Assembly (NCBI GenBank): GCA_964401695.1 | Contig: CAYNZS010000004.1 | Coordinates: 1 to 44,366, forward strand | Reading direction: 5' to 3' | Source of the DNA: an uncultured Nitrospirales bacterium | GTDB taxonomy: Bacteria; Hydrogenedentota; Hydrogenedentia; Hydrogenedentales; GCA-2746185 | DNA length: 44,366 nt | Shown here: in pieces, positions 2,473-43,909 of the stretch | Position numbering within the stretch: position 1 is the stretch's first letter | Layout of the letters: each line of letters begins with the position of its first letter | Program-made: the position numbers and the translations under genes | Notes under the pieces: model-generated | Told to the model about the DNA's origin: nothing | Database searches by the model: none | The model's input: the letters and a program-made list of their open reading frames with translations, nothing else

Positions 2473-2616
2473 GGCGAGACCTCCAGGGGCGCGGGCTATC
2501 TGAAGAAGTGGCGTAGCAAGCGAAGCGTGTGCCCCGCCGCTATCGGGTACGTGAGGTGCATTATCGCATAGGAGGCAAACGCCCCTAACCAGCCTGGCTA
2601 TTCCCATGCCCCGCGC

Positions 2617-4208: not shown

Positions 4209-4224
4209 GCCGATTCTATGATCC

Positions 4225-5754: not shown

Positions 5755-5802
5755 GTATAACTTTCTGAGCCCGGCCGGGGGCCCGTTGGCCGCGTCACTC
5801 GG

Positions 5803-9235: not shown

Positions 9236-9241
9236 GGTTTC

Positions 9242-9679: not shown

Positions 9680-9754
9680 GTCTCTTATCCTCCTTATGTT
9701 CTGGCGCACGCCCATTTGTCGAATAGCGGGGCGCGAAAGGGCCTCTACTCTCTA

Positions 9755-10978: not shown

Positions 10979-11025
10979 GTGTTATGCCTCTCGGCTGCGC
11001 GAATGCCAATGGAGCCAGCGCGCGA

Positions 11026-12762: not shown

Positions 12763-12764
12763 AG

Positions 12765-14975: not shown

Positions 14976-15057
14976 GCGTTTTCCTTTCTAGGGCTCAAGC
15001 GCGGACTCCGATTGCGCCGCGCCAGGATGGGCGGGGCCGCGGCGCGCTTTCCATACG

Positions 15058-15984
15058 TCATTTCAGAGAGTAATTCAGGTACTGCTGTTTTCCGCCTCGG
15101 ATGATGCCTATGCGAAACGATCGGGCGCCGGCAAATCTGTTTAACACTTTGAGTATCGAATCGGTGCTGTCGACCGGCTGGTTGTTGATGGTGGTAAGAA
15201 TGTCGTTATCTTGCAGGCCAAGATCCTTTGCCAATCCGATTTGAGAAACGTTAGAGGAGGTCAGTCCGATCACCTTGCCGTTCGCGTCTTTATGTTCTTT
15301 TACATCGACCTTGGTCGCGATGTCCACGTACTCGTCGAGCAGCCGCTGGTGAATCTCTTTCTGATTCAGTTTGATTGTATTGGCGCGCAATTCGGCCAGC
15401 TTCGGCCGTGTGGCCCGGTCTGTCCGGGGCGCCGGGACGGCAGACGTATTGGCCGCTATCTCGTAGGGCTCAAGCATGGGGAGATGCTCGAGCTTGTTCT
15501 CCCGCTCGTTCCGCAAGATCACCTCGTGCGCGAGCACCTCGTCGAGATAGACCTTGTCGAGAACCTCGTTGCCAATGAAGTACGTCATCGTCAGTTGGCC
15601 GCGGTCCTTGTGTTGAACTATTGCGCTGGCAAAAGGGTCGCGTCGTCCCGCGAGCATCGTGCCTTTGAGCAATAGCGGGAGTTTCGTTATTTCTTCGGTC
15701 GGAGGAGGCACAACCACAGGTAGAGGAACATTGGCCGCGCTATCCTTCGCGGCAGCGCCAAATATGCCGCTGCGGATAATTTCGCTGTAGGCCCCCGGGG
15801 GGCCGGTCCGGGCAAACTCGAATTCGCTTTCAAAAACGCCGGGGAACGAGTCTTGCTTGGAGGGGCCACGTGTCGCCAGGACGAAGTTGTTGAACACAAA
15901 AAACCCTACCCATAGCAAACACAGGCCCGCCAGGGCGCCTTCGGCAAGCTTGAAGAGATGCCGATATAAGAGTCCGCGCACCAT
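15058..15984 (-). CDS. gspC: Type II secretion protein C (TM, HR domain, PDZ domain)
   Basis: N-terminal TM; LPLLLKGTM...AIV HR domain; PDZ-like LGLQDNDILTTINNQPV...IIRGGK. First gene of the gsp cluster. Confidence 0.85.
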   Translation of the reverse strand: MVRGLLYRHLFKLAEGALAGLCLLWVGFFVFNNFVLATRGPSKQDSFPGVFESEFEFARTGPPGAYSEIIRSGIFGAAAKDSAANVPLPVVVPPPTEEITKLPLLLKGTMLAGRRDPFASAIVQHKDRGQLTMTYFIGNEVLDKVYLDEVLAHEVILRNERENKLEHLPMLEPYEIAANTSAVPAPRTDRATRPKLAELRANTIKLNQKEIHQRLLDEYVDIATKVDVKEHKDANGKVIGLTSSNVSQIGLAKDLGLQDNDILTTINNQPVDSTDSILKVLNRFAGARSFRIGIIRGGKQQYLNYSLK

Positions 15985-18663: not shown

Positions 18664-18713
18664 CTTTGCTCCCTTTCGTTTCAACGAGGGGCAATCATCC
18701 CTCGTACATTCGG

Positions 18714-27700: not shown

Positions 27701-29165
27701 TTGCGTCATATACCGAAAAACTCGAGTACATGCGGGTGCAATCGCCGTCTCCGGGATATGGATCCGGCGGATCGCCATCGAGTAGCTCACCATCATCGGT
27801 TAATGGAACGGGGGTTTCGCCCGTGAGGGGATTGAACAGATTCGGGTCGACCATTGTCCGTTCAGTAAGTTGCGCCGAGTAAAACAAACTGGTCGCGTTT
27901 GCCCACGCCGCCGAGGTGCGAAAGAGAACGAAATAGGCGTTGCCGCCATCGGCCGTCGAAGAGCGTGGCCAGGCGGCCCGAAGCTCGGGATCCGCGAGCA
28001 GGTAGCCATTCTCGTAGAAGTCAAGGTTAAACGTCAGGTCGTCGGTCGGTTCTTGATACGGGAAACCGTCGTTGGCCCAAGTGAGAATGGGAGGGGAGTC
28101 GATGACGCCGTTGGGGCCTGGATTGTATACGCCATCCGGGCCTCCTTCGCCAAAATCCTGGACGAGGGCGAACTCGAGAATGGAGTTCATAGTGGGGCTG
28201 ACGAACGCATCGAAGGGCGGGTTCTCTGGAAAGCAACCCGAATCGATACTGTAGACGACTTGACCCAAGACGCGCTCCGCGAAAACACCTGTGTCTTCGT
28301 CCAAGTCGGCCTCCATCGTGATCTGGAACAACGTCGTCCAATCGTTCAGGGGGAGAAGCGAGCCGTCATCGGGAAGCATGTGAGCGAACGAAAGCGACGC
28401 CGACGGCGGATCGTCGGGCGCTTCGGTGACGATAATCTGGATCGTCTCGAAGGGAGGCAGTGGGTCCTCGGCATCTGGGGGCGGCTGGAGAATAAGCGTG
28501 TATGTGCCTTGCTCCCAAATGCGGAGCGTGACTGTGTCTACCGTATCGTCGGTGAGGAGCGGAATGCAGTTGGCCCCGGCGAATCCATCCCATACCCATC
28601 CAGGCGGGTCGCCAGCGGGGTCGCACTCGGCGGCATCGGGATCGTTATTGGACAGATTCCATTCCCGGATTCTGGGGGGCGCGTCGAGGTCGGCCAGCGT
28701 GATCGGTTGCCCTTCGCCGACGACGATCGTTCCGCCAGCGAGCGGGGGCAGCGTGACGAGGGCTTTGGCGCCAGCCTGGGCCATCTGGAATGGTTTCAGC
28801 GCGGCGGCGGAGTTGTCTTTGGGCACATCACGCTGTGTGCCGGGCGAAAAAGATGTGGCCGGTTGGTCGGGCTGCGATGATTCTTTCAATGGGGCCAAGG
28901 GCGTAGCGATGGTGGAATCGCCGAATTCAATTTCGGTGGCGAAACCGATAGCCGCGAACTTGGCTTGCATGGACGGGTACGCTTCGAGCGATGCGTCTGT
29001 TTCCGACACCGCGCGGCTCCCGGCCGCCCGAATAAGCGGTTCGGCTTTCCGCTCGAACTTCGCTATCTCGTCATTATCGACAGTCCCCGGCGAAACCGCC
29101 AGAGCCCCGATGGTGGCTCCGGCCAAGAGGCCCACGATCACAAACGTGCCAATCTTTTTTATCAC
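18714..29165 (-). CDS. Giant (3483 aa) acidic surface/secreted protein: signal peptide, two large internal repeats, 2 PKD, 2 IPT/TIG, CFI-box-CTERM anchor
   Basis: N-terminal signal peptide; two PKD signatures YLWDFGDG...NP.H.Y (about 23575-24085); IPT/TIG-like LRGDNFG and VIGENFS (about 19040-19620); C-terminal GPCFIATAAFG...FRDGVLL...YY..SP, TM, RRRWR. GGAGG precedes the GTG start. Confidence 0.88.
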   Translation of the reverse strand: MIKKIGTFVIVGLLAGATIGALAVSPGTVDNDEIAKFERKAEPLIRAAGSRAVSETDASLEAYPSMQAKFAAIGFATEIEFGDSTIATPLAPLKESSQPDQPATSFSPGTQRDVPKDNSAAALKPFQMAQAGAKALVTLPPLAGGTIVVGEGQPITLADLDAPPRIREWNLSNNDPDAAECDPAGDPPGWVWDGFAGANCIPLLTDDTVDTVTLRIWEQGTYTLILQPPPDAEDPLPPFETIQIIVTEAPDDPPSASLSFAHMLPDDGSLLPLNDWTTLFQITMEADLDEDTGVFAERVLGQVVYSIDSGCFPENPPFDAFVSPTMNSILEFALVQDFGEGGPDGVYNPGPNGVIDSPPILTWANDGFPYQEPTDDLTFNLDFYENGYLLADPELRAAWPRSSTADGGNAYFVLFRTSAAWANATSLFYSAQLTERTMVDPNLFNPLTGETPVPLTDDGELLDGDPPDPYPGDGDCTRMYSSFSVYDATGAGPNPNPWTWVNKLYTPAAEHIRPRFDGASQTFDMVTGEWLDLRQLFALETWTSVIGINMHGNGGIREVNLVFTDIGADPNNPVPGNGGFDPRDGFDPFTIADEHPDYVPADQTLGREYPFNGAWMFHDTNDNSIFDVPVATTDSGVNFQGDYPMDPDISIPSEQVEPYNPGWEYIPNPPWGGDPAFKVRLRFDGGRRRSNSDDEPTGHLDPTPDSRDNEDPSSWAVDYFITIRPDSGFRDATLVAGDGTGLGLGADFRAFIEPRRFNPFLNEGEWDGGIWTDAQIFSPDSIVLDPLTVVNPPQAHFANNWPGPEGLHYHSLMDQPPPIGLNQPVDTLGANEKWWPQRFLNQNNAKPQRGAVEVHDLVLTYSTNNQDAKALLGVGYYASFSADDTLGLPGQLSLFDFWIDPFGQWGGDSAAVSFDNWTGFPTVFSGIHFVGTNAKDVILTTINIGDEIAIVSDDIFAYNQQSYETVPFFIPIFDEAPFGPRSQFFPNPPLRPSLPSYDSWPRKDLIENALPPGQYPRKSDWAQVDRAARLLQQHANNDDPPTAMIGINMVGADDPVVNRISQSFFEEVTVAFWGPDFTPSDLRPLDPNGANVESGVMLYEDSNSGSGLTGGIFNGTANSNFNAVLGADSPVLLNNLEWAGAPEPIDLDGDLIPDDMDGDGDADEDDYAWVLRMRPKDLWRVPISDIRYGGGLGTGDGGKSRAVVEEVAVAVSPMDIPEGGFTEDGVDAMLDEARAEKAAKAATPKALPDGGNEGDDLFVVIRPSDSVRQFEKIRVVIPAKLPSRIPAEQDASIAFSPNVHMPADSLIRRSPDENPVQDWYGHDTLEFNVPTALVSLLAPNSEIGAGIPVAVIGVDASTNRPSSEATPYSSQTLGEGTRGDSTLVVSGLPWPVGALVGDFVIDSEFEPYEIVGNTANVVTLLSGSPREGAWLIARSPTFLEQMIVEIYDEGIDTDGDGFPDEPDGQFNMAEDLASLDFEDPANGVSSGVSIYRDNFFHPNNRRGVFDPPVVVNGAVQYIDLPVRLDDRPVRLGIPGEPTNQIRFVFSSPGTDNVPTPIADQPRLRQWIPDSFGGLQAGNEPDFFVVLRSSLDMVLGDDFRVGIVSWGPNTPTEPDPDTFSDPPPPAQPADEFDVFSEFAWGTRAIGYISFFKEPPLYYWMDEHTAHQEVDISGYNWVRTTVSKNLLTEVITGAQGLTPDFIAEPTRQGRDLPVQFTSLTDPALASAYLWDFGDGITSTDQNPSHSYTVAGLYTVSLTVTDLTGIKFTETKPDYIEILLQPFAEFIASLRDGEAALQVSFLDQSDGGPSGNPVSYLWDFGDGSPTSADPNPLHLYTMAGFYTVELTVTFADGSVDTVEKPQYITVRLGGGGGGGTVVGGPTASLTVADSIAAGDVDRSGHALVPLNDWVPLFNINMSSDDAEAPATRFLQTLTYSLVSDPDPDPGPTLLSSYPRMSDILEYGLFVEGGDPEEDFDGGLDSLDTLLFTWDNTGAPVGFGVDLGGSIQYNLSFIGTGSTNDPQYRVQSGFDENGLSYIVAMRTSATWRDGIDLGYEVLDARMTPFAVNEDGEPADSYSPNFLDAEILEDNPLYTSSFSVYDITAGPAEPYLEAYHNSWITPHTAQIPMVEFSRPRFNPAGTVFDIVAGHFQGMRQLFAVDTWVQAVGIDAHSTGLSHTDHPVYTTGEDPAIPQATLREVNVVFTDIGGDPFAGPGSGGFDPRSGLENFPDIFEDGSEFLEVETAIGRDPGFYGVAIFADTNNNGLFDPPTPAPDGFGVTFTDYHLLPEIIPPEWEYISFPPGGGDPWWKIKLQFRDGSRERLGSPLDGLGGFLEPVPDAREGADEEIQGGGNGLADAARVDYFLVFRPDGGFTDVSTEPGDGIGLTPGADTRVFVEPRRVNPTTGSNTGGIYIDSMIPYAENVDVVAPVWQDDPRWGEIEPWWPERTLNSTVVKPLRTGVEVHDLVSVYETRALTARFPTIPFALGAFPLWLDSLGLTASRFLNFDTPPVGYWEVSVSYNAFGVPLYTTNSRTDSSYPAFESVPFFLPEFDGGILGPRSRFYQNPLALPSMPDYLTWPAELAPGAYPHLTDWAPEDRQARLLVQRVDSRSGLMPILGFNLVGNGDPVVLASNPSTLDELTVAIWGPGFDPSDLLPLDPEGDDLDSGVTLWADDDINAGDGVFLSSPEANFGVAGFQFDETVVPLNLLGWKDAAEPVDIDGDGVADDVDGDGDVDSGDNAWVLTLTPQTPIVLPGNDQDNEGTADSPHTFGDDLFFVVKTSKDISAHEKFRAFVPFTLPSRDAGQRQAGMRITPQGTVSASALTKRNPEEGTVVDFYSHDMLNVNVPVDITNIASHNVQLRPNSPALPVFGIDAYTNRPELTVDSGTEGVGAPEQFLDTSKAWAADVYRGKYLVDSGYKTFAIVGNTADRLTLVSGEPHAGSYLVVKDPTFLEQIIVEFERASTASTFSFFVDLLPLAADQSVSGVALYRDNDGHPDNLNGVFDPGIDIPVVLDDSPVLVGGAGQPTAQVKFVMSSPGTDDFPVPIEEQPRLRQWVPNAQGGPGAVEFEGPDFFVVVRASAELGEGADFTAAIVSWGPNTPSEPDPDTFTFPLPPEQPADEFKKFSEFPFGSRGLGFITMYEEAPTRYWMRERVAYSEPDPSPLRWIRSTTSKKVQSGTITTQDALVTPTMIVIDSATPGGLPLAIPEGETIEVLLRGDNFGSAAQVAIGGYSVEVLESSDYVIRLALSDLPNVEPQTPVVTIVRNPFTLEEATRADLFTLIEASQGTRVLDVVPSRGSSVDFSVTVIGENFSQPPLIEVIFGEMVMPVISVSEDGTSISVGFPPGGMPDTGALDVQVKNYSKVGVLASQDTLLSGFTFLNDPALMGPCFIATAAFGSPLEARLDTFRAFRDGVLLQSAAGVALVDAYYTASPALADEVAARPWLASVVRMVLIPAAWFLEFPIALTFALLAVAGASLGRRRWRAARN

Positions 29166-33702: not shown

Positions 33703-33733
33703 GCCGCGCTCGCACGTCGCGGCAGGCGCACGT

Positions 33734-33830
33734 CTTCTGTCATCCTGAACGAAGTGAAGGATCTCGATACGACAGAATCCCAATGAAATAGAGATACTTC
33801 GCTTCGCTCAGCATGACGGATAGGATGGAA
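33734..33830. repeat. REP/REPIN-like palindromic element, copy 2 (same orientation as copy 1)
   Basis: GTCATCCTGAACGAAGTGAAGGATCTC...GAGATACTTCGCTTCGCTCAGCATGAC (33739-33817). Shares flanks CTTCT and GGRTARGATGGAA with copy 1. Confidence 0.85.
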
Positions 33831-34255
33831 AACGCACGAATCAATACGCGAGGACCGGAGTGGATTGCTTGTCGTGCCTCCTTGCAAATACAAGTTTGAG
33901 ACTTCTGTCGGTGGCCTCTCTGACGGGGATTATTGAGGGACGCTCGGCGCGAGGCCCCACCGTCCCGGGCTGTTCCGGGCTCTTGCCGGTATCGTCAACG
34001 GGCGTAGCCGGAACCAAGTTGTTTGCGGGCGTGTTCAAAAGTTACACTGCTAGAAGCTCTCCCCTAACCGGGAACCACCAGTAGGGCCGGATTCCATTGC
34101 GTATATTTCTCACGTGACCGCGTCGTATCCCGATTCCTTCGGTTCGTTCGTGTTCCCTTCCGGGATGGGGGAGGGGCGTCCACTCAGGGGCTTTCTAGTA
34201 CGATTCCATTCTTAAGATATTCAAGTCAAACCGCTTAGCGAGGGTGGGTGAAGAA

Positions 34256-35608
34256 ATGAAAAAGAAGAATCTCAGCAGCGAAGTCGTGGGGCGTCGAGAA
34301 TTTCTGACTTCGGCCGGCGCAGCTGGCGCGGGGCTGGCGTTGTCGCAGACGGCCTTGGGCCAGAGCATTAAGTCCAATCCAGACGACGTAAACATCGCGG
34401 TGGTCGGCGTCGGCGCGCAGGGGCGCGTCTTGACCGAATCGATCCTGAGGATCCCCGGCATACGCTTCAAGGCGATTTGCGATATCTGGTCGTTTAGCAA
34501 GCAATACGGTTCGGGCCTGGTCAAGAAGTTTGGGCACGAAGTTAACGTATACGAGGACTATCGAGAGATGTTGGCCCAGGAGAAGGATCTCGATGCCGTT
34601 ATCGTTGCCACGCCGGATTGGATGCATGCCGAGCACGCGAACGCTTGTATGGACGCGGGCCTGCATGTGTACTGCGAGAAGGAGATGTCGAATTCCCTCG
34701 AGAAGGCAAGAAGCATGGTGCTCACGGCCAGGGAAACGGGTAGGCTCCTCCAGATAGGACACCAGCGCCGCAGCAATCCGCGCTATATCCACGCTGTCGA
34801 TAAGCTGATCTTGGGGGAGAAGCTGCTTGGGCGTGTGACGCAGGCCTACGGCCAGTGGAACCGCGCCAAGAGCGAGGATTTGGGATGGCCAAAGAAGCAT
34901 GAAATTGATGCCGCCACGCTCAGCAAGTACGGCTACGATTCCATGAGTCAGTTCAGAAACTGGCGTTGGTATCGCAAGTACGGCGGCGGTCCCATCGTCG
35001 ATCTCGGGTCGCATCAGATTGATATTTTCAGTTGGGTCTTTAGCGTCGACCCCAAGTCAGTGATGGCCGGCGGCGGGGTCGATTATTACAAGCAGCACGA
35101 TTGGTACGACAATGTCATGGCCATCTACGAATACGAGAACGAAGAGGGTGTCGCGCGCGCTTTCTACCAGGTGCTCACCACGACGTCGCACGGCGGCTTC
35201 GGCGAAACGTTCATGGGCGAAGACGGAGCAATCGAGATCTCCGAAGTGCCTTCAAGAGGGAACGCGGCGAAACGCGAAGCGCACGCCCCGGAGGAGAAGT
35301 GGGACGAGTTGGCGCTGCAAGGCGATCTGAAGAAGCTGGTCGCTCCAATCCGGCCGAGCGCCACGAAGAATGTGGTCGTCGATGCGCGTACGAGTGTCGA
35401 ATTGGGCACGTGGCCACTACCCATCGAGTTGGTCAAGCCGGCCCACCAGCCCCACCTCGAGAACTTCTTCGATGCAATTCGCCTGGGCAAGCCACTGAAT
35501 TGTCCGGCGGAGGTCGGTTACGAGACGGCGGTAGCGGTCCTGAAGGTGAATGATGCCGTCGAAGCGGGACGGAAGCTCGATTTCGCGCCAGGGGAGTTCG
35601 AGGTTTGA
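34256..35608 (+). CDS. Tat-exported Gfo/Idh/MocA oxidoreductase
   Basis: GRREFL twin-arginine signal; IAVVGVGAQG, VIVATPDWMH, VYCEKEM, GGGPIVDLGSHQID. Confidence 0.9.
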   Translation: MKKKNLSSEVVGRREFLTSAGAAGAGLALSQTALGQSIKSNPDDVNIAVVGVGAQGRVLTESILRIPGIRFKAICDIWSFSKQYGSGLVKKFGHEVNVYEDYREMLAQEKDLDAVIVATPDWMHAEHANACMDAGLHVYCEKEMSNSLEKARSMVLTARETGRLLQIGHQRRSNPRYIHAVDKLILGEKLLGRVTQAYGQWNRAKSEDLGWPKKHEIDAATLSKYGYDSMSQFRNWRWYRKYGGGPIVDLGSHQIDIFSWVFSVDPKSVMAGGGVDYYKQHDWYDNVMAIYEYENEEGVARAFYQVLTTTSHGGFGETFMGEDGAIEISEVPSRGNAAKREAHAPEEKWDELALQGDLKKLVAPIRPSATKNVVVDARTSVELGTWPLPIELVKPAHQPHLENFFDAIRLGKPLNCPAEVGYETAVAVLKVNDAVEAGRKLDFAPGEFEV

Positions 35609-37941
35609 GGCGGGCCGCGGCAACTGCATTCGTATTGGCTATTTTTGGAGCGGCGATTGGCGCCTATGGCGAGCCGGATGAGCATGGCCACCAGTGGGAT
35701 GGAAGCCAGACGACGCCGGTTCATCGTTTGCCCCTCGTGGATGAGGAGGAGCAGCGCATTCTGCCTCATTATAGGTACGCCATGCCTTTTTCGGCACGCG
35801 AAACCTGCGGGACCTGTCACGACTACTCGACGATAGCCGGGGGCCTGCATTTTAACACTTCGACAGAAGGACCTTCGGCGGGCCGGCCCGGCGAACCGTG
35901 GGTGTGGGTGGATCCAGCGACGGGTACGCAGCTTCCCTTGTCCTATAGGGGTTGGGCGGGTGCGTGGCGTCCCAATGAGCTAGGCCTGACCGACTGGAAG
36001 TTTACGCAGATCTTCGGACGGCACCTGCCGGGTGGGGATGTTGCGGAACCCGAGGACGTCTTCTCGGACCCCGAGTCGAGATGGAACGTGTCGGGCACGG
36101 TCGAGATTAACTGTATGGGCTGCCACAACGCTGCGCCGTTGCAGGACCAAAGCGAATGGGCCATCCAGATGGCGCGGGAGAATTTTCGCTGGGCGGCAAC
36201 GGCTGCCAGCGGCCTGGGCATTGTCGGGGGAATGGCGTCGCGCTTATCGGGGGCGTGGTCAATTCACGACGGCAGGAATCCGGACGACAACGTGTTTGCC
36301 GTGCCGCCATCGGTCACCTATAACAAAGCTCAGTTTGACAGCAAGAATCGCGCATTATTGGACGTAGCGCACAAGCCGGTGGACAAGCGTTGCCTACACT
36401 GCCACTCGGCTTCGCCGGTGGACGAAGCGAAGTGGCTCACGGACGGGGATGTGCATTCGGCGGCTGGCATTGGCTGCGCGGATTGCCATCGCAATGCTCT
36501 GGACCACAATATGGTGCGCGGTTACGAGGGCGAGGAAGGTGTCGGCCCGGGCGCAAGCGAATTCACCTGTGCGGGATGCCACCTCGGCACTCCCGGCGCG
36601 GAGGGCCTCGCGGCCATGGGTGGCCGACTGGGCGCCGTGCGGCCTGAACACAAGGGCATGCCGGTTATCCATTTCGAAAAAATGAGCTGTACGTCCTGCC
36701 ACTCGGGTCCATGGCCAGAGGAGGACCCGGTTAGAATTCGCACGTCTCGCGCGAATCGCCTGGGTATTCATGGCAGGGCCCAGTGGTTCACGGATGCGCC
36801 CGCCATAGTTGAGCCCGTTTTCATGAAAGGGCACGATGGAATGCTGGCTCCGCACCGCATGATGTGGCCGGCCTTCTGGGGGCGCTTGAACGGCGGCGAG
36901 ATCGAGCCGCTGACGCCGGACGCTGTCGCGGCTGTGGCGGAGGGCATCCTTGACGCGGACTTCCAGATTGGGAGAGTCCTGATTGCGCTCGGCACAGGCC
37001 TGGGCGAGTACGCCATCGCGCAGAACGCGTCGGCGGACGCTGCCGATGCGTCGCCGGTTGCGGCCTGGGAACCTGTGCTCCTGACGCCGGGAAAACTGTA
37101 CCGCGTCAACGTGGACGGTGGCCTGGATGTGACCGCCTATGAAGGCGGAATTGCCGTCGAGACTTCGGCCTGGGCGCGGGCGAACGATGACGAGGTCGTG
37201 CCTCTGATTCCGGACTTCGACTCTAGCGCGGAACTGCTGGATTTGGAGGTGGAGGTCTTGATTGAAGGGTTCCTCAAGGCTCTGGACTCCGATGGAGCCA
37301 CCGCCACACCGGTCGTTGTGCAGGGCAACAAGGCCTATCGCATGGACGAGTTTGGGTATGTCGAAGCTTTTGAAATGCCTGGCGCGGAGGCTGGTTCACC
37401 ACGATTGGGTTGGTGGGATGACGGCGCCCTTTCGCCTTTGGCGTCAGATTTCGCAGTGCGAACCGTGGCTGAAACGGCCGGCGGCGAAGAACCGTTAACC
37501 GAGGAGCAGGTGGGCATGGTGCTCGCGGCGCTGGCCGGCGCGGGAGAAAGGGACACCTTCGGGTATGTGTCGAGCGGACGCCTGTTCCGGCTGGACGAAC
37601 CGGAGGGGGTCGTGGCATCGGAGCACGCTTCGGCGGAACCCTACGCCTGGCCGCTGGCGCACGATGTCCGCCCCGCGGCACAGTCGCTCGGGGCCAAGTC
37701 GTGCACGGACTGCCACGCGAAGGACGCGCCCTTTTTCTTTGGCGAGGTCAGGGCCCTGGGTCCGTTGAAGACGGCGGCCGCGGTCGTCACACCCGCGCGC
37801 GCACTGCAAGGCGAGGATGCGCCGGTGTACATCTACACCAGCAAAGTTTTCAAGTGGTTTATCATCGTCACGATAGGGCTTCTCGTGCTTCACATTATTT
37901 TGGATTTGGCGCACCGCGTCCGAAGCAAGAGGACCGGTTGA
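35605..37941 (+). CDS. Membrane-anchored multiheme (7 CxxCH) cytochrome c
   Basis: CGTCH, CMGCH, CLHCH, CADCH, CAGCH, CTSCH, CTDCH; N-terminal signal peptide; C-terminal TM ending LHIILD. TTG start overlaps the upstream TGA. Confidence 0.88.
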   Translation: MRRAAATAFVLAIFGAAIGAYGEPDEHGHQWDGSQTTPVHRLPLVDEEEQRILPHYRYAMPFSARETCGTCHDYSTIAGGLHFNTSTEGPSAGRPGEPWVWVDPATGTQLPLSYRGWAGAWRPNELGLTDWKFTQIFGRHLPGGDVAEPEDVFSDPESRWNVSGTVEINCMGCHNAAPLQDQSEWAIQMARENFRWAATAASGLGIVGGMASRLSGAWSIHDGRNPDDNVFAVPPSVTYNKAQFDSKNRALLDVAHKPVDKRCLHCHSASPVDEAKWLTDGDVHSAAGIGCADCHRNALDHNMVRGYEGEEGVGPGASEFTCAGCHLGTPGAEGLAAMGGRLGAVRPEHKGMPVIHFEKMSCTSCHSGPWPEEDPVRIRTSRANRLGIHGRAQWFTDAPAIVEPVFMKGHDGMLAPHRMMWPAFWGRLNGGEIEPLTPDAVAAVAEGILDADFQIGRVLIALGTGLGEYAIAQNASADAADASPVAAWEPVLLTPGKLYRVNVDGGLDVTAYEGGIAVETSAWARANDDEVVPLIPDFDSSAELLDLEVEVLIEGFLKALDSDGATATPVVVQGNKAYRMDEFGYVEAFEMPGAEAGSPRLGWWDDGALSPLASDFAVRTVAETAGGEEPLTEEQVGMVLAALAGAGERDTFGYVSSGRLFRLDEPEGVVASEHASAEPYAWPLAHDVRPAAQSLGAKSCTDCHAKDAPFFFGEVRALGPLKTAAAVVTPARALQGEDAPVYIYTSKVFKWFIIVTIGLLVLHIILDLAHRVRSKRTG

Positions 37942-38037
37942 GTTCTTCCATGGTTTTTCTTGCGAACGTGGATCCGTTACACGGGAAATTGGGATGAAGA
38001 AGTCTGAGATTAAAGAGGCAAAGAAGAAGCGGACCGC

Positions 38038-38073
38038 GACATCCCCCTTCAATGGGGGACCAAGGGGGGTGTC
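38038..38073. repeat. GC-rich intergenic hairpin
   Basis: GACATCCCCCTT ... AAGGGGGGTGTC: 12-bp arms with one G-U pair and no U-tract. Confidence 0.5.
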
Positions 38074-38130
38074 CTCCGAGCGTTTCGGACGTCTCATGGA
38101 TTACTTCTTTAACAGGTGACGGGAGGAACG

Positions 38131-38850
38131 ATGCAGGCCAGTCATGCCGAAAAGACGAAGGGTGAGTTCTTTCAACGTTTCAGCCTTCAGTTCCGCATTC
38201 AGCATTTCGTGTTGTTCCTGAGTGTTTTGACGCTGATCGTTACGGGGGTGCCGCTTTGGTGCATCAAGCGGCCGGAGTACGTGTGGTGGTCCGAAAGCGC
38301 GATGGGAGCAACGGGCTATATTGAGGCGGTCCGGTGGATTCACCACGTCGCGGCGTTGGCGCTGACGGCGTTGTCGGTGTACCATCTGTTGTACACGATC
38401 TACACGCGCGAGGGGCGCCGCGAGTTCGTCGCGCTTCTTCCCCGCCCCAAGGACTTTGCCGACGTGACAACGAATTTGATGTATTTCCTGGGGCTGCGCA
38501 AGGAAGGCCCCCGTTTCGGCCGCTACACCTACTTCGAGAAGTTCGACTATTGGGCGGTCTACTGGGGTTGTGTGATCATGATTGGCTCAGGCTATACGCT
38601 GTGGTTCACCGACATCTCGCTGCGTTTCGCGCCTTGGTTCAATTATGAACTGGCGGCGCTTGTCCATGCCGACGAGGCGATCTTGGCTACGTTGGCCCTG
38701 CTGGTTTGGCATTTCTACAACGTGCATCTGAATCCATCGCGTTTCCCCGGCACGATGCTTTGGCTGCACGGAAAGATTTCGCGCGAGGAGATGATGGCCG
38801 AACATCCTCTTGAATACGAGGACATCGAATCTGACGGAGAACGAGAATGA
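38131..38850 (+). CDS. Di-heme cytochrome b (FdnI/HyaC-like membrane subunit)
   Basis: RFSLQFRIQH, WIHH, RFGRYTYFEKFDYWAVYWG, VHADEAILA...VWHFYNVH, EHPLEY; about 4 TMs. ATG 38131 follows GGAGGA (alternative GTG 38116). Confidence 0.88.
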   Translation: MQASHAEKTKGEFFQRFSLQFRIQHFVLFLSVLTLIVTGVPLWCIKRPEYVWWSESAMGATGYIEAVRWIHHVAALALTALSVYHLLYTIYTREGRREFVALLPRPKDFADVTTNLMYFLGLRKEGPRFGRYTYFEKFDYWAVYWGCVIMIGSGYTLWFTDISLRFAPWFNYELAALVHADEAILATLALLVWHFYNVHLNPSRFPGTMLWLHGKISREEMMAEHPLEYEDIESDGERE

Positions 38851-40184
38851 GTAAGCGCAAAACACTGACGCGGCGCGGCTTCCTTAAGGGCGCGGCCGCC
38901 GCCGGCGCAACCAGCGTCTTCGGGGCCGGCTCCGCCCGGAGCCGCATTGTACATGCCGCCGCCTTGGGTGCCGATGGAAACGTCGCGCCGAGCAATCGCA
39001 TCGCTTTGGCTGCCATCGGCATTGGCATCCAAGGCACCGTCAACATGGCGCAGTTCCTCAAGAAGAAGGACGTACAACTCGTCGCGGTTTGCGACGTGGA
39101 CGAGGGCCATCGCGATGAGGCCAAGTCCATGGTGGATCAGGTCTACGGAAACGAGGACTGCAAGGCGTACTCGGACTTCCGAGAGTTGATCGGACGCGAC
39201 GACCTGGATGCCGTCGCCCTGGCGATCCCCGACCACTGGCACGCCCTCCTTGCCACCGAGGTGGCGAAGGCCGGCCTCGATATCTACGGCGAGAAGCCGC
39301 TGGCGCGCTCGGTTCGCGAGGGCCGGGCCATTTGCGATGCCGTCAGCCGCTACAACCGGGTCTGGCAGACGGGCAGTTGGCAACGTTCGAGAGCCCAGTT
39401 CCATCGGGCCTGTGAACTGGTCCGCAACGGGCGAATCGGCAAGGTTCACAAGGTGGAGGTGGGATTGCCGGATGGCGGGTGCCTGGCTACTCAGCCGGTG
39501 GAGGCCGTTCCTGAGGGGCTTGACTGGAACATGTGGCTCGGGCCGGCGCCGTACGTACCGTACCGGCCCTTTGGGGATCCGTCCGGATCCTATAAGCGGT
39601 GCCATTTCAACTGGCGCTGGATCATGGACTACTCGGGTGGACAACTCACCGATTGGGCCGGACACCACATCGACATCGCGCACTGGGGACTCGGGCTCGA
39701 ACACACCGGCCCTGTCGAAGTCGAGGGCAAGGGCGACTACCCCGACGATGGGATTTATAACACGCCAGCAGAATACACCGTGCACTGCACCTACGCCGAC
39801 GGACTGCGCATGACCGTGTCCAACGCGCGCAGGATTCCGATGGGGACCAAGTGGCACGGCGAAGACGGCTGGATTCATGTCTCGCGCGACGGCATCGTGA
39901 CAGAGCCGATAAAGATTCTGAGCGAGGTCATCGGGCCTGAAGAGATTAGACTGTACAAGAGCACGGACCACTTTCAGGATTTCCTGGACTGTGTGAAGAG
40001 CCGCCAATCGACGATCACACCCCCCGAGGACGCGCAGAGGTCCATAAGCGTAGCGTTGCTCGGCGAGATCGCCATGCTCCTCGGGAGAAGGATTCGTTGG
40101 GATCCGGAAAATGAAGCGGTCGTCGATGACCCAAGCGCCAGCGCGCTATTAGGGCGCTCCTACCGTGAGCCATGGTGTCTATAG
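38847..40184 (+). CDS. Tat-exported Gfo/Idh/MocA oxidoreductase
   Basis: TRRGFLK signal; IGIGIQG, AIPDHWH, YGEKPL, WQTGSWQRS, SGGQLTDWAGHHID. ATGA coupling to the cytochrome b gene. Confidence 0.92.
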   Translation: MSKRKTLTRRGFLKGAAAAGATSVFGAGSARSRIVHAAALGADGNVAPSNRIALAAIGIGIQGTVNMAQFLKKKDVQLVAVCDVDEGHRDEAKSMVDQVYGNEDCKAYSDFRELIGRDDLDAVALAIPDHWHALLATEVAKAGLDIYGEKPLARSVREGRAICDAVSRYNRVWQTGSWQRSRAQFHRACELVRNGRIGKVHKVEVGLPDGGCLATQPVEAVPEGLDWNMWLGPAPYVPYRPFGDPSGSYKRCHFNWRWIMDYSGGQLTDWAGHHIDIAHWGLGLEHTGPVEVEGKGDYPDDGIYNTPAEYTVHCTYADGLRMTVSNARRIPMGTKWHGEDGWIHVSRDGIVTEPIKILSEVIGPEEIRLYKSTDHFQDFLDCVKSRQSTITPPEDAQRSISVALLGEIAMLLGRRIRWDPENEAVVDDPSASALLGRSYREPWCL

Positions 40185-40226
40185 GTCCAGTTTGAGCCGG
40201 GCTCGAGCGAACAGCAAGGAGGTGAA

Positions 40227-42209
40227 ATGAAACGAACAGCGATACGCTGCCGTGGCGCACTGGTCCAGGGCGCGCTCATTCTGGCGGCGTTGATGGTCGC
40301 GATGGGCGCCGCCTATGGCGCGGACGACAGCCTCAGAGATCCTTACGCGGCGATCCTGAGTTACGAAGTTGGCCAAAGCCCGAAAGCTCTGAAGGCAATC
40401 GAAGAGGAAATCCGCGGTGCCACGGCCGGGCAACGACTGGCTATAGAAGGAAAGCTCCTCGGCGCCCTGGAGTCGCCCGAAGCAACGGTTGCGTGCAAGC
40501 AATTCGTTTGCCGGATGCTGCGCCGGACAGGCGCCAGCGAATCGCTTCCCGCTCTGGCCAGGCTATTGGCGGACGAGGAACTCTCGCATATGGCGCGCTT
40601 CGCCTTGCAGGAGATGCAGGATTCCAGAGTCGACGAAATTCTCCGCGAGGCCTTGGCCGGCCTCAGCGGCGGCGCTCGAGTTGGCGTGGTCAACACGATC
40701 GCTCAGCGCTGCGACCCAAGAGCCGTTCCGCAACTGGTCAAGCTGCTCAAGAGCGAAGACACGTCCTTGCTGCGGGCGGCCATTTCGGCCCTGGGCCACA
40801 TCGGCGGCGGGAAGGCAGCGAAGGCGCTCAAGCGCGTGAAAGTAGGCGACGATATCGAGACCCACCGGGCTGACGCCTATCTGATGTGCGCGGACAAAAT
40901 GCTCGCCGAAGGCGACGCCTCCAGCGCCCTGGAAATTTACAGCAAGATGGCGGACGAGAAGAACTCCGCGATGGTCCGGGCCGCGGCCTATCGTGGCGTC
41001 GTCTTAGCGGACAAGAAGCAGGCGCTCCGCACCGTGCTGGCCCTGTTGCGGGACGAGAATGCGGATCTGCGGGAGTCGGCCGGAAGGCTCGCCCGCGAGG
41101 CCTTCGCGAGCGAGACGCCCGACCCGGCTGTCACGAAGGCTCTTGCGGACAGCCTCCCCTCGCTGCCGCCTCAAGCCCAGGTCGTGTTGTTGAGCGCGTT
41201 GGCCGATCGTGGAGACGAGGCTGCGCTGCCCGAGGTGGCCGAAGCCGCCAGCAGCAGCGACGAGGCTGTGCGGGTCCAAGCCATTCGGGCTTTGGGTGTC
41301 CTTGGCGACGCGTCGAGTGCCGAGACGCTGATCCAAGCGATGGCTGAGGGCGGCGACATAGCCGTGGCCTCGGCGAGGGCCCTCGACGGGCTCCGGGGCG
41401 ACGGGATTGGCGCGGCCCTAGTCAAAGCCCTCGAAAGCGGCGGCGAGTCTGCCGCTCAGCTCAGCCTTATCGAAGTGATCGAAGCGCGGAGCGAGAGCGC
41501 CGCGGTCCCGGTTCTGCTCACTACAACCCAAAACTCGAACTCGAAGGTTCGCAAGGCCAGCTACACTGCGCTGAAGAAACTCGCCGGCGAGAACGAGCTT
41601 CCGGCCCTGGTCGAGCTGCTCTTGTCGAGCAAGAAATCCTTAGCGCGCCGCAGCGTGGAGCGCGTGATGACCGCCGTGCTCGGGCGCATGCCCGAACCCG
41701 GCGCCGGTACTGGCCCCGTCATTGCGGGTCTCTCCGAGGCAGGCGCCAAGGCCAAGGAGAACCTGTTGGCGGTACTGGGCAACGCGGGTGGAAGCGAGGC
41801 CCTCGCAGCGATACGCGAGGAACTGAAGAACGGCGATGACGCTGCAAAGAAGGCGTCCGTCAAGGCCCTGGGGAATTGGTCCGACACGGCCCCCGCGGCT
41901 GACTTGCTTGCCGTCGCGAGGAACGATTCGAATACGACCTTGCAGATTCTTGCCTTCCGTGGATACGTGGGCCTGGCCGGGCTTCCGAGCGAACGCCCGG
42001 CCGGAGAGACGCTGAAGATGTACGAAGCCGCGATGGGAATCGCGGGTCAGGCAGACGCAAGAAAGCTGGTATTGTCAGGCGTTTCCGCCATGCCGAGCCG
42101 CGAAGCGCTTGAGTTCGTGGAGAAGTACCTCGAAGACGAGGAGATCAAGTCGGAGGCAGAAACCGCCTATCGGAAGATATCCGGCCTACTTGAAGACTCG
42201 AGTTCATAG
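40227..42209 (+). CDS. Secreted HEAT/PBS-lyase-like repeat protein
   Basis: Signal peptide (AYG|ADD); repeated helical units such as LRAAISALGHIGG, VRVQAIRALGVLGD and ASVKALGNW. AAGGAGG RBS. Confidence 0.85.
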   Translation: MKRTAIRCRGALVQGALILAALMVAMGAAYGADDSLRDPYAAILSYEVGQSPKALKAIEEEIRGATAGQRLAIEGKLLGALESPEATVACKQFVCRMLRRTGASESLPALARLLADEELSHMARFALQEMQDSRVDEILREALAGLSGGARVGVVNTIAQRCDPRAVPQLVKLLKSEDTSLLRAAISALGHIGGGKAAKALKRVKVGDDIETHRADAYLMCADKMLAEGDASSALEIYSKMADEKNSAMVRAAAYRGVVLADKKQALRTVLALLRDENADLRESAGRLAREAFASETPDPAVTKALADSLPSLPPQAQVVLLSALADRGDEAALPEVAEAASSSDEAVRVQAIRALGVLGDASSAETLIQAMAEGGDIAVASARALDGLRGDGIGAALVKALESGGESAAQLSLIEVIEARSESAAVPVLLTTTQNSNSKVRKASYTALKKLAGENELPALVELLLSSKKSLARRSVERVMTAVLGRMPEPGAGTGPVIAGLSEAGAKAKENLLAVLGNAGGSEALAAIREELKNGDDAAKKASVKALGNWSDTAPAADLLAVARNDSNTTLQILAFRGYVGLAGLPSERPAGETLKMYEAAMGIAGQADARKLVLSGVSAMPSREALEFVEKYLEDEEIKSEAETAYRKISGLLEDSSS

Positions 42210-42271
42210 AAAATGAAGCAAGATCCTAAGGACCGCGCACGGTCTGGGATCGTCGAAATAAGGAGAGAGAT

Positions 42272-42964
42272 ATGAAGAACACGATAGTGACGCTGGCGGC
42301 CTTTCAGATCCTTGCCCTATTGGCGCTGGGTCCGGTGGCCTTTGGAGAGACTAAGGGAAGCGAGGAGATGGCGCCCCTGCCCATCGTACTGCCCGAAGCG
42401 ATGTTTAGCGGAACGCCAAAAGACATCCGCACGAGCAACCTGGAAAGGCAGACTGGCAGGAAACGCCCTCCATTCCTGGCGCCGGTGGGCGCGGTGAACG
42501 TGGCCCTCGAGAAGGAGGTCACGGGCAGTGACGAAGAACCCATCATTGGCGAGATAGAACAGGTCACGGACGGCGACAAGTCGGGCGCCGACGGCAGTTT
42601 CGTGGAATTCGGGCCGGGATCCCAGTATGTTCAAATCGATCTTGAAGAGGTATGCGAGATTTATGCTGTCGTCTTCTGGCACTTCCACGCGCAGGCGCGC
42701 GTCTACTTTGACGTTATCATCAGAACGGCCGACGACCCGGATTTCATCACGAATGTCCAGACCATTTTCAACAGCGATCACGACAACTCTTCGGGCCTGG
42801 GAATCGGCAAGGACAAGGAGTTCATCGAGACGGACGACGGCAAACTGGTCGATGCCAAGGGCGTCAAGACGCAATACGTTCGCCTCTACAGCAACGGAAG
42901 TACCGCGAGCGACATGAACCACTACAACGAGGTCGAGATTTACGGAAAGCCGGTCGCGGAGTAG
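42272..42964 (+). CDS. Secreted discoidin/F5-8 type C (galactose-binding-like) domain protein
   Basis: Signal peptide (AFG|E); NVALEKEVT, VTDGD, YVQIDL, QYVRLYSNG, NEVEIYG. Confidence 0.78.
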   Translation: MKNTIVTLAAFQILALLALGPVAFGETKGSEEMAPLPIVLPEAMFSGTPKDIRTSNLERQTGRKRPPFLAPVGAVNVALEKEVTGSDEEPIIGEIEQVTDGDKSGADGSFVEFGPGSQYVQIDLEEVCEIYAVVFWHFHAQARVYFDVIIRTADDPDFITNVQTIFNSDHDNSSGLGIGKDKEFIETDDGKLVDAKGVKTQYVRLYSNGSTASDMNHYNEVEIYGKPVAE

Positions 42965-42991
42965 CCGAATACCGGGCCCCGCGCGCATCGG

Positions 42992-43909
42992 TTGGAGGAC
43001 GCAGCCATCCCGCAGGCGCCACAGACGAAGGACGACTCCGGGCTGCATCGGTTCGCCCATGAGGCCATGACCACAGTCTTCGAGGTGGTCATCGCGGGCG
43101 AAACAGGGGAGTATGCCCGGCAGGCCTCGCAGGCCGTCTTCGGGGAAATTGACCGGCTTGAGGGCGTTCTGAGCCGCTTCATCGAATCGAGCGATATCTC
43201 GCGCATTAACAAGCTGGGGGCGCGGGAACCCGTGCGCGTTGGCGCTGACACATTCGAGTGCCTGCAAACGGCAGCGGCGGTCCATCGCGTCACCGGCGGC
43301 GCATTCGACGTCACCATTGGCGCCGTCACCACGCCGGACGGCGAGCGCCTCCCCGCGGAATCCGCGCCTGTGGGCATGGGAATGGTCGAATTCCACGAGG
43401 ACATCTTCGCGATCAGCCTGAAAGCCGAGGGCCTCTCGATTGACCTGGGTGGAATCGGCAAGGGCTTCGCCTTGGACAAGGCGCTCGAAATCCTCGGCGA
43501 CTGGAGTGTCGATTCCGTCCTGCTTCACGGCGGAGAGAGTTCGGTGCTGGGCATCGGCGCCCCGCCCGACGAGGACGGATGGCCCGTAGCCGCGGGGGGC
43601 GAGCAGGGCGAACGGTTTATCCTGCGGGACAAGGCCCTCAGTGGTTCGGGGATCTACGTGAAAGGCAGCCACATCATCGACCCCGGAACCCGCCGCCCCG
43701 CAGAGGGCAAAACCGGGGCGTGGGCCTTCTGCCCCTCCGCGGCCGTCGCCGACGCCCTTTCGACGGCCTTCATGGTCATGCCGCCGCCGGACATCGAACG
43801 GTTCTGCCGGAACCACCCCGGCACCGGCGCTATGTTCGTCGTCGAACAGGAAGGCGACAGTACGCTCACACGGCTCGGGGACTGGGCGCAACTCGGGGAG
43901 CAACGCTGA
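42992..43909 (+). CDS. apbE: FAD:protein FMN transferase (ApbE family)
   Basis: AMTT, SDISRIN, TGGAFDVT, IDLGGIGKGFALD, LSGSG, HIIDPGT, ADALSTA. The start is uncertain and no signal peptide is visible. Confidence 0.9.
   Translation: MEDAAIPQAPQTKDDSGLHRFAHEAMTTVFEVVIAGETGEYARQASQAVFGEIDRLEGVLSRFIESSDISRINKLGAREPVRVGADTFECLQTAAAVHRVTGGAFDVTIGAVTTPDGERLPAESAPVGMGMVEFHEDIFAISLKAEGLSIDLGGIGKGFALDKALEILGDWSVDSVLLHGGESSVLGIGAPPDEDGWPVAAGGEQGERFILRDKALSGSGIYVKGSHIIDPGTRRPAEGKTGAWAFCPSAAVADALSTAFMVMPPPDIERFCRNHPGTGAMFVVEQEGDSTLTRLGDWAQLGEQR

Follow-up and report, generated by a model that had tools for sequence, protein, structure and literature searches.

The operon and its subunits

We examined a seven-gene operon in a 44,366-nucleotide stretch of DNA from an uncultured bacterium labelled Nitrospirales and placed by GTDB in the Hydrogenedentota (assembly GCA_964401695.1, contig CAYNZS010000004.1, positions 1 to 44,366 of the forward strand; hereafter the window). 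The operon, at positions 34256..43909, encodes a nicotinamide adenine dinucleotide (NAD)-type dehydrogenase of the Gfo/Idh/MocA family predicted to be exported through the twin-arginine translocation (Tat) pathway, which we call Gfo1, a heptaheme c-type cytochrome and a cytochrome b, followed by a second predicted Tat-exported dehydrogenase (Gfo2), a HEAT-repeat protein, a discoidin-like protein and an ApbE-family flavin transferase. An earlier reading of the DNA letters (the original prediction) had described seven co-oriented, partly translationally coupled genes, and the list of open reading frames (ORFs) and the sequence bear this out: all seven ORFs lie on the + strand, the overlap TTGA is found at 35605-35608 and ATGA at 38847-38850. 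Gfo1 starts at an ATG (34256), within an ORF that itself opens at a GTG (34244). The genes are as follows.

34256..35608, + strand: Gfo1, predicted Tat-exported NAD-type dehydrogenase of the Gfo/Idh/MocA family (PF01408, PF22725, PF02894)
35605..37941, + strand: heptaheme c-type cytochrome, 778 residues, seven CXXCH motifs, a signal segment and a C-terminal membrane anchor
38116..38850, + strand: cytochrome b of the FdnI/HydC type (Ni_hydr_CYTB, PF01292), 244 residues, presumed quinone-reactive membrane subunit
38847..40184, + strand: Gfo2, second predicted Tat-exported Gfo/Idh/MocA dehydrogenase (TIGR01409, PF01408, PF19051)
40227..42209, + strand: HEAT-repeat protein, predicted periplasmic, with a Sec-type N-terminus (HEAT_2, 2.3e-36)
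42272..42964, + strand: discoidin (F5/8 type C)-like protein, predicted secreted, with a weak match to PF22633
42992..43909, + strand: ApbE-family flavin transferase, predicted cytoplasmic, without a signal peptide (PF02424, 1.8e-43)

Gfo1 fits the description of the Gfo/Idh/MocA family, with an N-terminal Rossmann domain carrying GxGxxG and a C-terminal alpha/beta substrate domain, and it matches PF01408 (6.4e-20, above the cut-off), PF22725 (2.9e-13) and PF02894. Across 49 orthologs, R13, R14 and F16 (RR-x-F) of its Tat motif GRREFL, the GxGxxG glycines G51, G53 and G56, and D76 are invariant, and the motifs YCEKE and DLGSHQID are conserved. Gfo1 orthologs form a separate clade in the tree, apart from Gfo2 and from a third Tat-exported type, GfoX, with a support of 100 in the Shimodaira-Hasegawa-like approximate likelihood ratio test (SH-aLRT). 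The genome of the window encodes about 29 Tat-exported Gfo paralogs, but a single Gfo1, a single heptaheme cytochrome and a single cytochrome b of this kind. Among solved structures DgpA, a C-glycoside 3-oxidoreductase, comes nearest (9.1e-18, over the Rossmann region alone); further solved matches include 1ofg, 1h6a and 5a02 (glucose-fructose oxidoreductase, GFOR, and aldose-aldose oxidoreductase), with 1,5-anhydro-D-fructose reductase among the best. Against NF058561, the equivalog model of the BT_2158 family with a cut-off of 750 bits, Gfo1 scores 93.7 and Gfo2 142.9 bits, in both cases over the N-terminal half only. Judged by sequence similarity, both enzymes are related to the glycoside 3-dehydrogenases of the BT_2158 family but are not members of it. 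Among 7998 candidates, no fusion of Gfo1 to a longer protein was found at E 1e-20 or better, which is weak evidence. Metagenome-assembled genomes titled 'uncultured Eubacteriales' (L003, L007-L009 and about 20 others) are intermixed with Aminicenantes in the tree of Gfo1 and have the same gene order, and these submitter labels are probably wrong.

The cytochrome c has two hydrophobic segments, an N-terminal signal (residues 4-22) and a C-terminal anchor (residues 743-772), and is laid out as a six-heme N-terminal domain (about 23-420), a non-heme domain (about 418-697) and a seventh heme motif (700-704). All seven CXXCH motifs are invariant in the 49 aligned orthologs, as are seven additional histidines, with one more nearly invariant; these are candidate distal ligands. 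The protein scores above the cut-offs of the Pfam multiheme families PF14522, PF22678 and PF14537. Among 8000 scored candidates at least 1439 are homologs at E 0.001 or better, and for the best 120 (45-59% identity) every name given by the source is 'hypothetical protein'. A search of its profile against PDB sequences returned only matches of about 57 residues around heme motifs to NrfA (E 2.6e-4). We discarded a full-length AlphaFold2 model, in which the predicted local distance difference test score (pLDDT) of the heme domain stayed below 50 and a fold search matched the C-terminal helix only. Modelled alone, the non-heme domain reached a pLDDT of 89.5; its best VIA match was to a chemoreceptor sensor domain (Z 4.1, 68 residues, root-mean-square deviation 3.5), and Foldseek returned none at E 0.001 (best 8.5e-3, TM about 0.12). 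As modelled, the domain matches no recognised fold, which we do not take as evidence for a new one. A variant cytochrome is found in family f13 of the window's phylum (G082-G118, e.g. L084 and L085), where only the heme domain of about 450 residues is shared and the C-terminal part is another one; this variant keeps Gfo1, the discoidin gene and ApbE alongside, and in two of the three loci fetched also a PMT_2 gene.

The cytochrome b of the window is a canonical Ni_hydr_CYTB protein (PF01292, 49.9 bits vs a gathering score of 30.1). Its score against TIGR01583, the equivalog model of the formate dehydrogenase gamma subunit, is 38.5 bits, below the cut-off of 115.85, and it is therefore not an FdnI equivalog. 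Most other loci encode, at the same position, a divergent multi-helix membrane protein of 180-250 residues with two invariant histidines. An hhalign comparison of the window's cytochrome b with 20 proteins of this other type gave a probability of 0.5%, which is not significant. In L002, the closest locus, the membrane protein is of the other type (probability 99.2%) and resembles the first helix of the window's protein (E 4e-4), and the members from L037 and P0023 have sub-threshold PF01292 matches. On similarities of this kind, distant homology between the two types appears likely. In P0023 (930 residues), cytochrome c and a Ni_hydr_CYTB region are joined in one protein. Hence the pairing of a multiheme c with a cytochrome b, which the original prediction had put forward, holds, with a membrane b-type partner that is sometimes fused. 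A cytochrome form of 944 residues in L010 has an extra C-terminal extension without a Pfam match. An apparent fusion of the membrane protein with ApbE in L075 was rejected as a frameshifted read-through of a noisy contig.

Linkage of Gfo1 and the cytochrome

A pattern scan that took a single genome for each species found 349 loci, in species-level genomes, with a relative of the cytochrome. To count neighbouring genes we used tblastn with the window's proteins in the best-scoring 80 of these 349 loci, taken with their flanks; this set is dominated by Aminicenantes, so that its loci are not independent samples. The locus labels comprise Aminicenantes/Acidobacteriota, Phycisphaerae, Kiritimatiellae, Victivallales, Lentisphaerae and Verrucomicrobia. 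A Gfo1 ortholog, called at 55% identity or more (observed 58-71%, median 63%), ends less than 500 base pairs (bp) upstream of the cytochrome and on the same strand in 71 of the 71 loci that have at least 1500 bp of upstream DNA. Four of the nine loci with shorter upstream DNA still carry the 3' part of Gfo1. The small membrane protein and ApbE follow the cytochrome nearly everywhere.

Of the 135 genomes surveyed in the window's phylum, 17 encode the cytochrome, and 16 of these 17, but no others, encode Gfo1 (E 1e-60 or better). In all 15 Gfo1-positive genomes besides the window's, Gfo1 and the cytochrome match next to each other on a single contig, and the seventeenth cytochrome-positive genome (G091), without Gfo1, has a partial cytochrome match only. 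Conservation of the gene neighbourhood had been named as a check of the original prediction, and the Gfo and cytochrome genes do stay together, both across the sampled loci and through full co-occurrence in the phylum. The conservation is far beyond chance, and the Gfo1-cytochrome core is not a chance neighbourhood.

A physical association between the two proteins is supported by a prediction of their complex. The input was Gfo1 (residues 36-450) and the heme domain of the cytochrome (residues 23-420), each with an alignment of 49 rows, and four hemes. The heme domain was used as the portion of the cytochrome invariably found with Gfo1; in family f13 it is the only portion common to Gfo1's partners. 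The prediction reached an ipSAE of 0.70 (0.70, 0.72 and 0.69 in separate runs), vs 0.00 for the best of three controls, the ipSAE being the model's own confidence and not a measurement. The mark set for this score is reached by 116 of 157 solved complexes and by 2 of 215 mismatched pairs, counts that hold only roughly here because custom alignments were used and a ligand was included. The runs share at least 94% of their contacts, and the pLDDT of the partner is at least 74. Predicted contacts lie at residues 53-61, 80-93, 203-215 and 308-315 of Gfo1 and at residues 48-58, 153-161 and 215-229 of the cytochrome, around its first two heme motifs. To our knowledge, there is no solved complex of a Gfo enzyme with a cytochrome that the model could have memorised. 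An interface between Gfo1 and cytochrome c, another check that had been proposed, was thus found by prediction, and the model supports the binding of Gfo1 to the heme domain.

Accessory genes and wider clusters

Clustering of the ORFs of all loci gives a canonical order in Aminicenantes, in which Gfo2, the HEAT protein, a cytoplasmic Gfo and a xylose-isomerase-like TIM barrel precede Gfo1, which is followed by cytochrome c, the membrane protein, ApbE, the discoidin protein, a PMT_2 glycosyltransferase of the GT-C type and a GT2 glycosyltransferase. The TIM barrel and the cytoplasmic Gfo are each found upstream in 41 of 53 loci; downstream, PMT_2 occurs in 45, GT2 in 26 and a DUF1080 3-keto-disaccharide hydrolase in 18 of 52 loci. 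The flanks of the clusters often hold the DUF1080 hydrolase together with another Tat-exported Gfo. The BT2156-2159/AL1-AL4 pathway, which according to the two papers on it oxidises glycosides at C3 and then cleaves them (PMC8121099; 10.1101/2024.03.25.586180), uses these same four types of enzyme: a DUF1080 hydrolase, a TIM-barrel 'sugar phosphate isomerase', a Tat-exported Gfo and a cytoplasmic Gfo.

Gfo2 matches the Tat signal model TIGR01409 (23.2 bits vs a cut-off of 16.7), PF01408 (8.6e-13, above the cut-off) and PF19051 (3.1e-26, 92.9 bits). Its nearest solved structures are 8tdf (7.4e-27) and 8tdh (1.9e-24), both deposited as dehydrogenases, and by these matches it appears related to glycoside 3-dehydrogenases. 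The HEAT gene comes after Gfo2 in every locus where both were called. The pair is present in 22 of the 46 loci with at least 8 kb of upstream DNA, and the genome of the window has a second Gfo2-HEAT pair (C208:50-2418) away from any cytochrome. The original prediction had made Gfo2 and a HEAT scaffold part of the redox complex; the distribution is that of an optional accessory module. In two loci the HEAT protein is fused to other domains: a ThuA domain (PF06283, 4e-26) lies N-terminal to the HEAT repeats in L039:844-3690 (labelled Aminicenantes), and an F5/8 type C domain lies behind them in L010:5062-7416 (labelled Phycisphaerae). As leads, these fusions connect the HEAT protein with sugar oxidation of the ThuA/ThuB type and with the binding of carbohydrates. 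The likeness to ThuA/ThuB consists in the single ortholog that bears a ThuA domain; the HEAT protein of the window lacks that domain, and ThuAB, of which ThuB is a Gfo/Idh/MocA enzyme, lacks HEAT repeats. ThuA and ThuB are described, in the part of the source available, as the 3-keto-disaccharide-forming pair of rhizobia (PMC8121099).

The discoidin-like protein scores 20.0 bits against PF22633, vs a cut-off of 27.8, which the ortholog in L030 exceeds with 29.5 bits, and its ESM Atlas neighbours are F5/8 type C clusters (0.99). Its gene lies downstream of the cytochrome in 53 of 61 loci and its product is 50-64% identical across phyla. In 43 sequences, 83 positions are conserved at 90% or more, some of them in an extension of about 45 residues at the N-terminus. 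Such strong conservation suggests a fixed partner or ligand. In 50 of the 53 loci with both genes, a PMT_2/GT-C glycosyltransferase gene comes no more than 300 bp after the discoidin gene, and in L030 the genes from ApbE through GT2 overlap by 1-4 bases. The genome of the window also encodes a discoidin paralog (52% identity) that adjoins PMT_2, with GT2 on the opposite strand (C96:9356-12983). The discoidin protein therefore belongs to a glycosyl-transfer unit at least as much as to the redox unit, its constant partner being the GT-C glycosyltransferase, and the role of a lectin-like substrate-capture subunit first proposed for it finds no support in that form. In one Kiritimatiellae locus, genes for a UbiA prenyltransferase and a polyprenyl synthase separate ApbE from the discoidin gene (L037:13852-15735). 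The Alistipes AL1-AL5 fosmid, as far as its available description goes, also has GT2, GT39 and a carbohydrate esterase (10.1101/2024.03.25.586180), a company that echoes the GT2, PMT-type GT-C and polysaccharide deacetylase of the Aminicenantes clusters.

ApbE was proposed to attach flavin mononucleotide (FMN) to an extracytosolic carrier of the operon. The protein of the window matches PF02424 with 149.4 bits (1.8e-43), and its stretches 'shiidp' (H-I-I-D-P) and 'adalsta' (A-D-A-L-S-T-A), which we take to be the catalytic histidine and the metal-binding D/T motifs, align with 1vrm (TM1553) and 4xdt. Its gene lies within 1500 bp downstream of the cytochrome in 56 of 62 loci and anywhere in the locus in 61 of 62. 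Signal peptide and lipobox are both missing from the window copy and from all 57 orthologous ORFs. In these proteins the highest 15-residue Kyte-Doolittle mean at the N-terminus is 1.19, the conserved domain begins 7-20 hydrophilic residues past the start codon and, where the ORF is readable farther upstream, no hydrophobic stretch was found there. The second ApbE of the genome has a hydrophobic N-terminus, as in an exported protein, and lies after nqr genes on C22; the canonical D-x-x-[S/T]-G-A-[S/T] flavinylation sites of the genome are in Nqr-like and Rnf-like proteins on other contigs. The canonical motif is absent from 13 conserved neighbour families, in which the looser pattern D..[ST][GSA]A[ST] gives three single-sequence matches only (in the cytochrome, discoidin and HEAT families). 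A 'GGMAS' stretch just before the predicted interface was considered as a non-canonical site and dropped as weak: among 167 anchored sequences its Ser position holds Phe in three, Tyr in three and Thr in one, and the motif is off at two key positions. With neither an exported enzyme nor a motif in the neighbours, the flavinylation step as first written is unsupported, and it is topologically awkward. Tat substrates may be the only conserved subunits that a cytoplasmic ApbE could modify before export, which is a lead and not a finding. In the available part of a review, cytosolic ApbEs are known, for example from Klebsiella, and His257 is the general base (PMC12052999). A flavinylation survey (Meheust et al. 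2021, PMC8238504) kept a cluster only where ApbE or a flavinylated protein had a signal peptide or lipidation site, a rule that may explain why the present cluster does not appear in the part of the survey available.

A proposed sugar dehydrogenase and its alternatives

We lean, by a small balance of probability, towards reading the core of the operon as a periplasmic, probably 3-keto-forming sugar dehydrogenase that is wired to quinone and built like formate dehydrogenase-N. Gfo1, the heptaheme cytochrome c and the cytochrome b would then be the three subunits of a dehydrogenase that faces the periplasm. Gfo1 would fold around NAD in the cytoplasm, be exported by Tat and dock onto the N-terminal heme domain of the cytochrome, where it would turn a glycoside or sugar into a keto-sugar by oxidising a hydroxyl group, probably the one at C3. 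The cytochrome, held in the membrane by its one C-terminal helix, would pass the electrons to the b-type subunit and from there to quinone. Quinol from the complex could be re-oxidised and respired, since the genome encodes a cytochrome bd-like oxidase as well as a heme-copper oxidase. Gfo2 and HEAT would form an accessory dehydrogenase module, and the discoidin protein would go with the GT-C/GT2 glycosyl-transfer unit. That a Gfo enzyme is wired to cytochromes is strongly supported by the comparative evidence and by the one complex prediction that passed. The analysis itself shows the gene set, its synteny and co-occurrence, the fusions of c with b and a predicted interface; the substrate, the direction of the electrons, quinone as their acceptor and, above all, the step from hydride to single electrons are inferred. 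Of the periplasmic sugar-oxidation complex on the quinone pool that the original prediction envisaged, the wiring of a Gfo enzyme to cytochromes is supported, and the flavin, lectin and scaffold parts find no support in the form first given.

The architecture, rather than homology, recalls formate dehydrogenase-N (FdnGHI), which has a Tat-exported catalytic subunit, a wire subunit with a single C-terminal helix and a four-helix cytochrome b. The present system shares with it a Tat-exported catalytic subunit, a one-helix electron wire and a b subunit of the Ni_hydr_CYTB/FdnI type, but has an NAD-type Rossmann enzyme instead of a molybdoenzyme and seven c-type hemes instead of four iron-sulfur clusters. 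CbcL of Geobacter, in which a HydC/FdnI-like b domain is fused to a multiheme c and which oxidises quinol for extracellular electron transfer, likewise pairs a multiheme c with a Ni_hydr_CYTB-type b, as do the fused relatives such as P0023. The likeness drawn here is one of architecture, and CbcL is not known to have a dehydrogenase partner. A closer parallel in chemistry is LacABC, in the available text a periplasmic, cytochrome c-dependent glucoside 3-dehydrogenase that uses flavin adenine dinucleotide (Liu 2021, PMC8121099). There too a glycoside is oxidised to a 3-keto-glycoside in the periplasm and the electrons leave through a c-type cytochrome, as we propose here, but a flavoprotein handles the step from two electrons to one, whereas the present cluster has an NAD-type Gfo and no recognisable flavoprotein subunit. 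Zymomonas GFOR and the Caulobacter aldose-aldose oxidoreductase are, according to the same partly available source, Tat-exported as folded Gfo enzymes with bound NAD(P) (PMC8121099); they differ in their ping-pong mechanism, in reducing a second sugar and in having no cytochrome partner. BT2156-BT2159 of Bacteroides thetaiotaomicron and AL1-AL4 of Alistipes resemble the system in their Tat-exported Gfo, with presumed tightly bound NAD, and in the enzyme types that recur in related clusters. They are redox-neutral and without cytochromes, whereas here a distinct Gfo1 clade is locked to a cytochrome, a membrane subunit and ApbE. The present system would accordingly be a net-oxidising counterpart to the redox-neutral BT2158/AL3 pathway.

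Several observations weigh against this reading. The Gfo1-cytochrome pair has a patchy distribution: in the window's family it is missing from all 13 other genomes, one of which is 99% complete and belongs to the same genus, and so it is not a core function there. Neither Gfo1 nor Gfo2 attains any NCBIfam equivalog cut-off, and hence we infer the substrate rather than assign it. The characterised periplasmic Gfo enzymes described in the available parts of the two papers recycle their cofactor through a second sugar, with no net electron output (PMC8121099; 10.1101/2024.03.25.586180). A purely catabolic model does not account for the tight link to GT-C and GT2. The RNA evidence consists of exact short contigs from one metatranscriptome library, which may contain DNA. 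The residues of the predicted interface are not conserved beyond the rest of either protein (14 of 30 vs 181 of 385 in Gfo1, 6 of 22 vs 129 of 376 in the cytochrome). Finally, NADH yields a hydride and hemes accept single electrons, and a converter step is therefore needed; none was found in the operon, where ApbE is predicted to be cytoplasmic and the neighbours carry no flavinylation motif. All NAD(P)H-to-cytochrome systems that we know of place a flavin in between. The step would probably need a flavin or another mediator, for which the signal-less ApbE is the only candidate gene; possible routes are a non-canonical FMN site on a Tat-exported subunit, a diffusible mediator in the Gfo1 pocket, or a cytochrome that serves as a rescue line only. 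A fuller version of the first route, unlikely when taken as a whole, would make Gfo1 the first NAD-type Gfo/Idh/MocA enzyme to act as the catalytic head of an extracytoplasmic respiratory complex, by way of a tethered FMN that ApbE installs in the cytoplasm, at a non-canonical site on a Tat-exported subunit, before export. An FdnI-type b subunit would then give a proton-motive redox loop through which periplasmic sugar oxidation conserves energy, and GT-C and GT2 would be linked to it as enzymes with which the operon glycosylates its own complex or the substrate of that complex.

The glycosyltransferases lead to an alternative to which we assign a low probability, namely that the cluster modifies an envelope glycan or lipid-linked sugar: GT2 would load polyprenyl phosphate, Gfo1, perhaps with Gfo2, would oxidise or epimerise the sugar and send the electrons to quinone, and GT-C with the discoidin protein would transfer the product to a periplasmic acceptor. 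The succession of DprE1/DprE2 and GT-C arabinosyltransferases in mycobacteria is a possible precedent for this scheme. The frequency of PMT_2 and GT2 downstream, the position of PMT_2 right after the discoidin gene, the overlapping genes of L030 and the prenyl-lipid genes of the Kiritimatiellae locus all fit it, and identities of about 63% for Gfo1 and 50-64% for the discoidin protein across phyla suggest one fixed substrate and not varied nutrients. The operon of the window, however, has neither GT-C nor GT2, which sit with the discoidin paralog on another contig; L002 and G002, from the same phylum, lack PMT_2 and GT2 in the stretches examined; and the DUF1080 hydrolase, cytoplasmic Gfo and TIM barrel of the flanks are genes of a catabolic type. 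Another alternative is a redox-neutral 3-keto glycosidase, in which Gfo1 recycles NAD through the 3-keto product in the manner of AL3/BT2158 and the cytochrome only rescues enzyme trapped with NADH when the keto-sugar escapes, with little net flux. In the available texts on the nearest characterised enzymes, Liu et al. 2021 propose that BT2158 reduces a second, unidentified sugar (PMC8121099), and Nasseri et al. 2024 describe recycling of the cofactor by 3-ketoglucose and name cytochromes as a possible extra route (10.1101/2024.03.25.586180). The hydrolase and TIM-barrel genes of that pathway are present in the wider clusters, but the operon of the window has neither, Gfo1 forms its own clade far from the AL3-like Gfo2, and a seven-heme wire and membrane subunit kept with Gfo1 in every one of the 71 loci would be a costly means of repair. 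We judge this reading, too, improbable.

The electrons might also flow in reverse, from quinol through cytochrome b and the hemes to a Gfo1 that reduces a periplasmic keto-sugar or carbonyl as an electron sink or for detoxification. Enzymes of the Gfo/Idh/MocA family are reversible, 1,5-anhydro-D-fructose reductase is among the best solved matches of Gfo1, and most hosts are named as lineages that we know as anaerobic (Aminicenantes, Kiritimatiellae). We consider this direction very unlikely nonetheless, for the reduction of NAD+ by quinol is uphill on standard potentials, the host of the window has oxygen reductases and nothing in the analysis pointed that way. Mere co-regulation of neighbours, with no physical or electron-transfer link between dehydrogenase and cytochrome, would agree with the ordinary conservation of the predicted interface; the adjacency over several phyla, the full co-occurrence, the frequent start-stop overlap and the complex prediction make it the least probable of these explanations, and we regard it as highly improbable.

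If the dehydrogenase reading is true, the operon encodes a new kind of respiratory dehydrogenase, and sugar oxidation in sediments, aquifers and sea water is linked directly to the quinone pool. Tat-exported Gfo/Idh/MocA enzymes are abundant in several bacterial phyla and underlie a recently described broad-specificity breakdown of glycans. Two papers on such enzymes leave open by what route the NAD(P)H trapped in them is oxidised again once they are outside the cytoplasm (PMC8121099; 10.1101/2024.03.25.586180), and the cluster offers a concrete, clonable candidate answer. It also raises the mechanistic question of how a hydride reaches heme without a recognisable flavoprotein, with the unusual cytoplasmic ApbE as a lead. 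The literature searched, which leaves subscription journals outside its coverage, yielded no description of the cluster. The cluster is widely conserved and undescribed in that literature, and its arrangement is what a cytochrome route of re-oxidation would need.

The gene arrangement is not an artefact of a single assembly, since contigs from three DNA runs, one of which may be the source sample, tile the whole window; joints of low support between DNA contigs (sides of 21-24 letters) were disregarded. Metagenomes of 12 studies, from marine, seawater and hydrothermal-vent settings, hold DNA nearly identical to it. For the neighbouring GspE protein, 14 names of close relatives (70-74% identity) include an organism, and 13 of these read Candidatus Hydrogenedentes or Hydrogenedentota. 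The exact contigs of the metatranscriptome library mentioned above, 150-290 bases long, fall in the leader and in five of the operon's seven genes, which records presence in an RNA library only; no conclusion follows for the stretches between them. About 550 bp of non-coding DNA separate the operon from an ABC transporter upstream (a solute-binding protein and two permeases). A scan for promoters and terminators gave counts not above those of shuffled sequence.

Some further features of the window are listed for the record. In the intergenic DNA upstream of the operon, at 33726-33831, contig depth in three metagenome runs is 75-208, vs 3-15 over the operon, and many contigs end or diverge there; the segment looks like a multi-copy repeat common to other genomes. 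On the - strand, a protein of 3483 residues whose Pfam matches are PKD domains only (18714-29165) is followed by a protein of 778 residues without a Pfam match (16348-18684). A complete type II secretion operon (3699-15984, - strand) comes directly after the two genes, and their products may be its cargo. An Oxidored_molyb gene, for a molybdopterin protein of the sulfite-oxidase type, is found at 1468-2607 (- strand) beside a LOG/lysine-decarboxylase-like gene.

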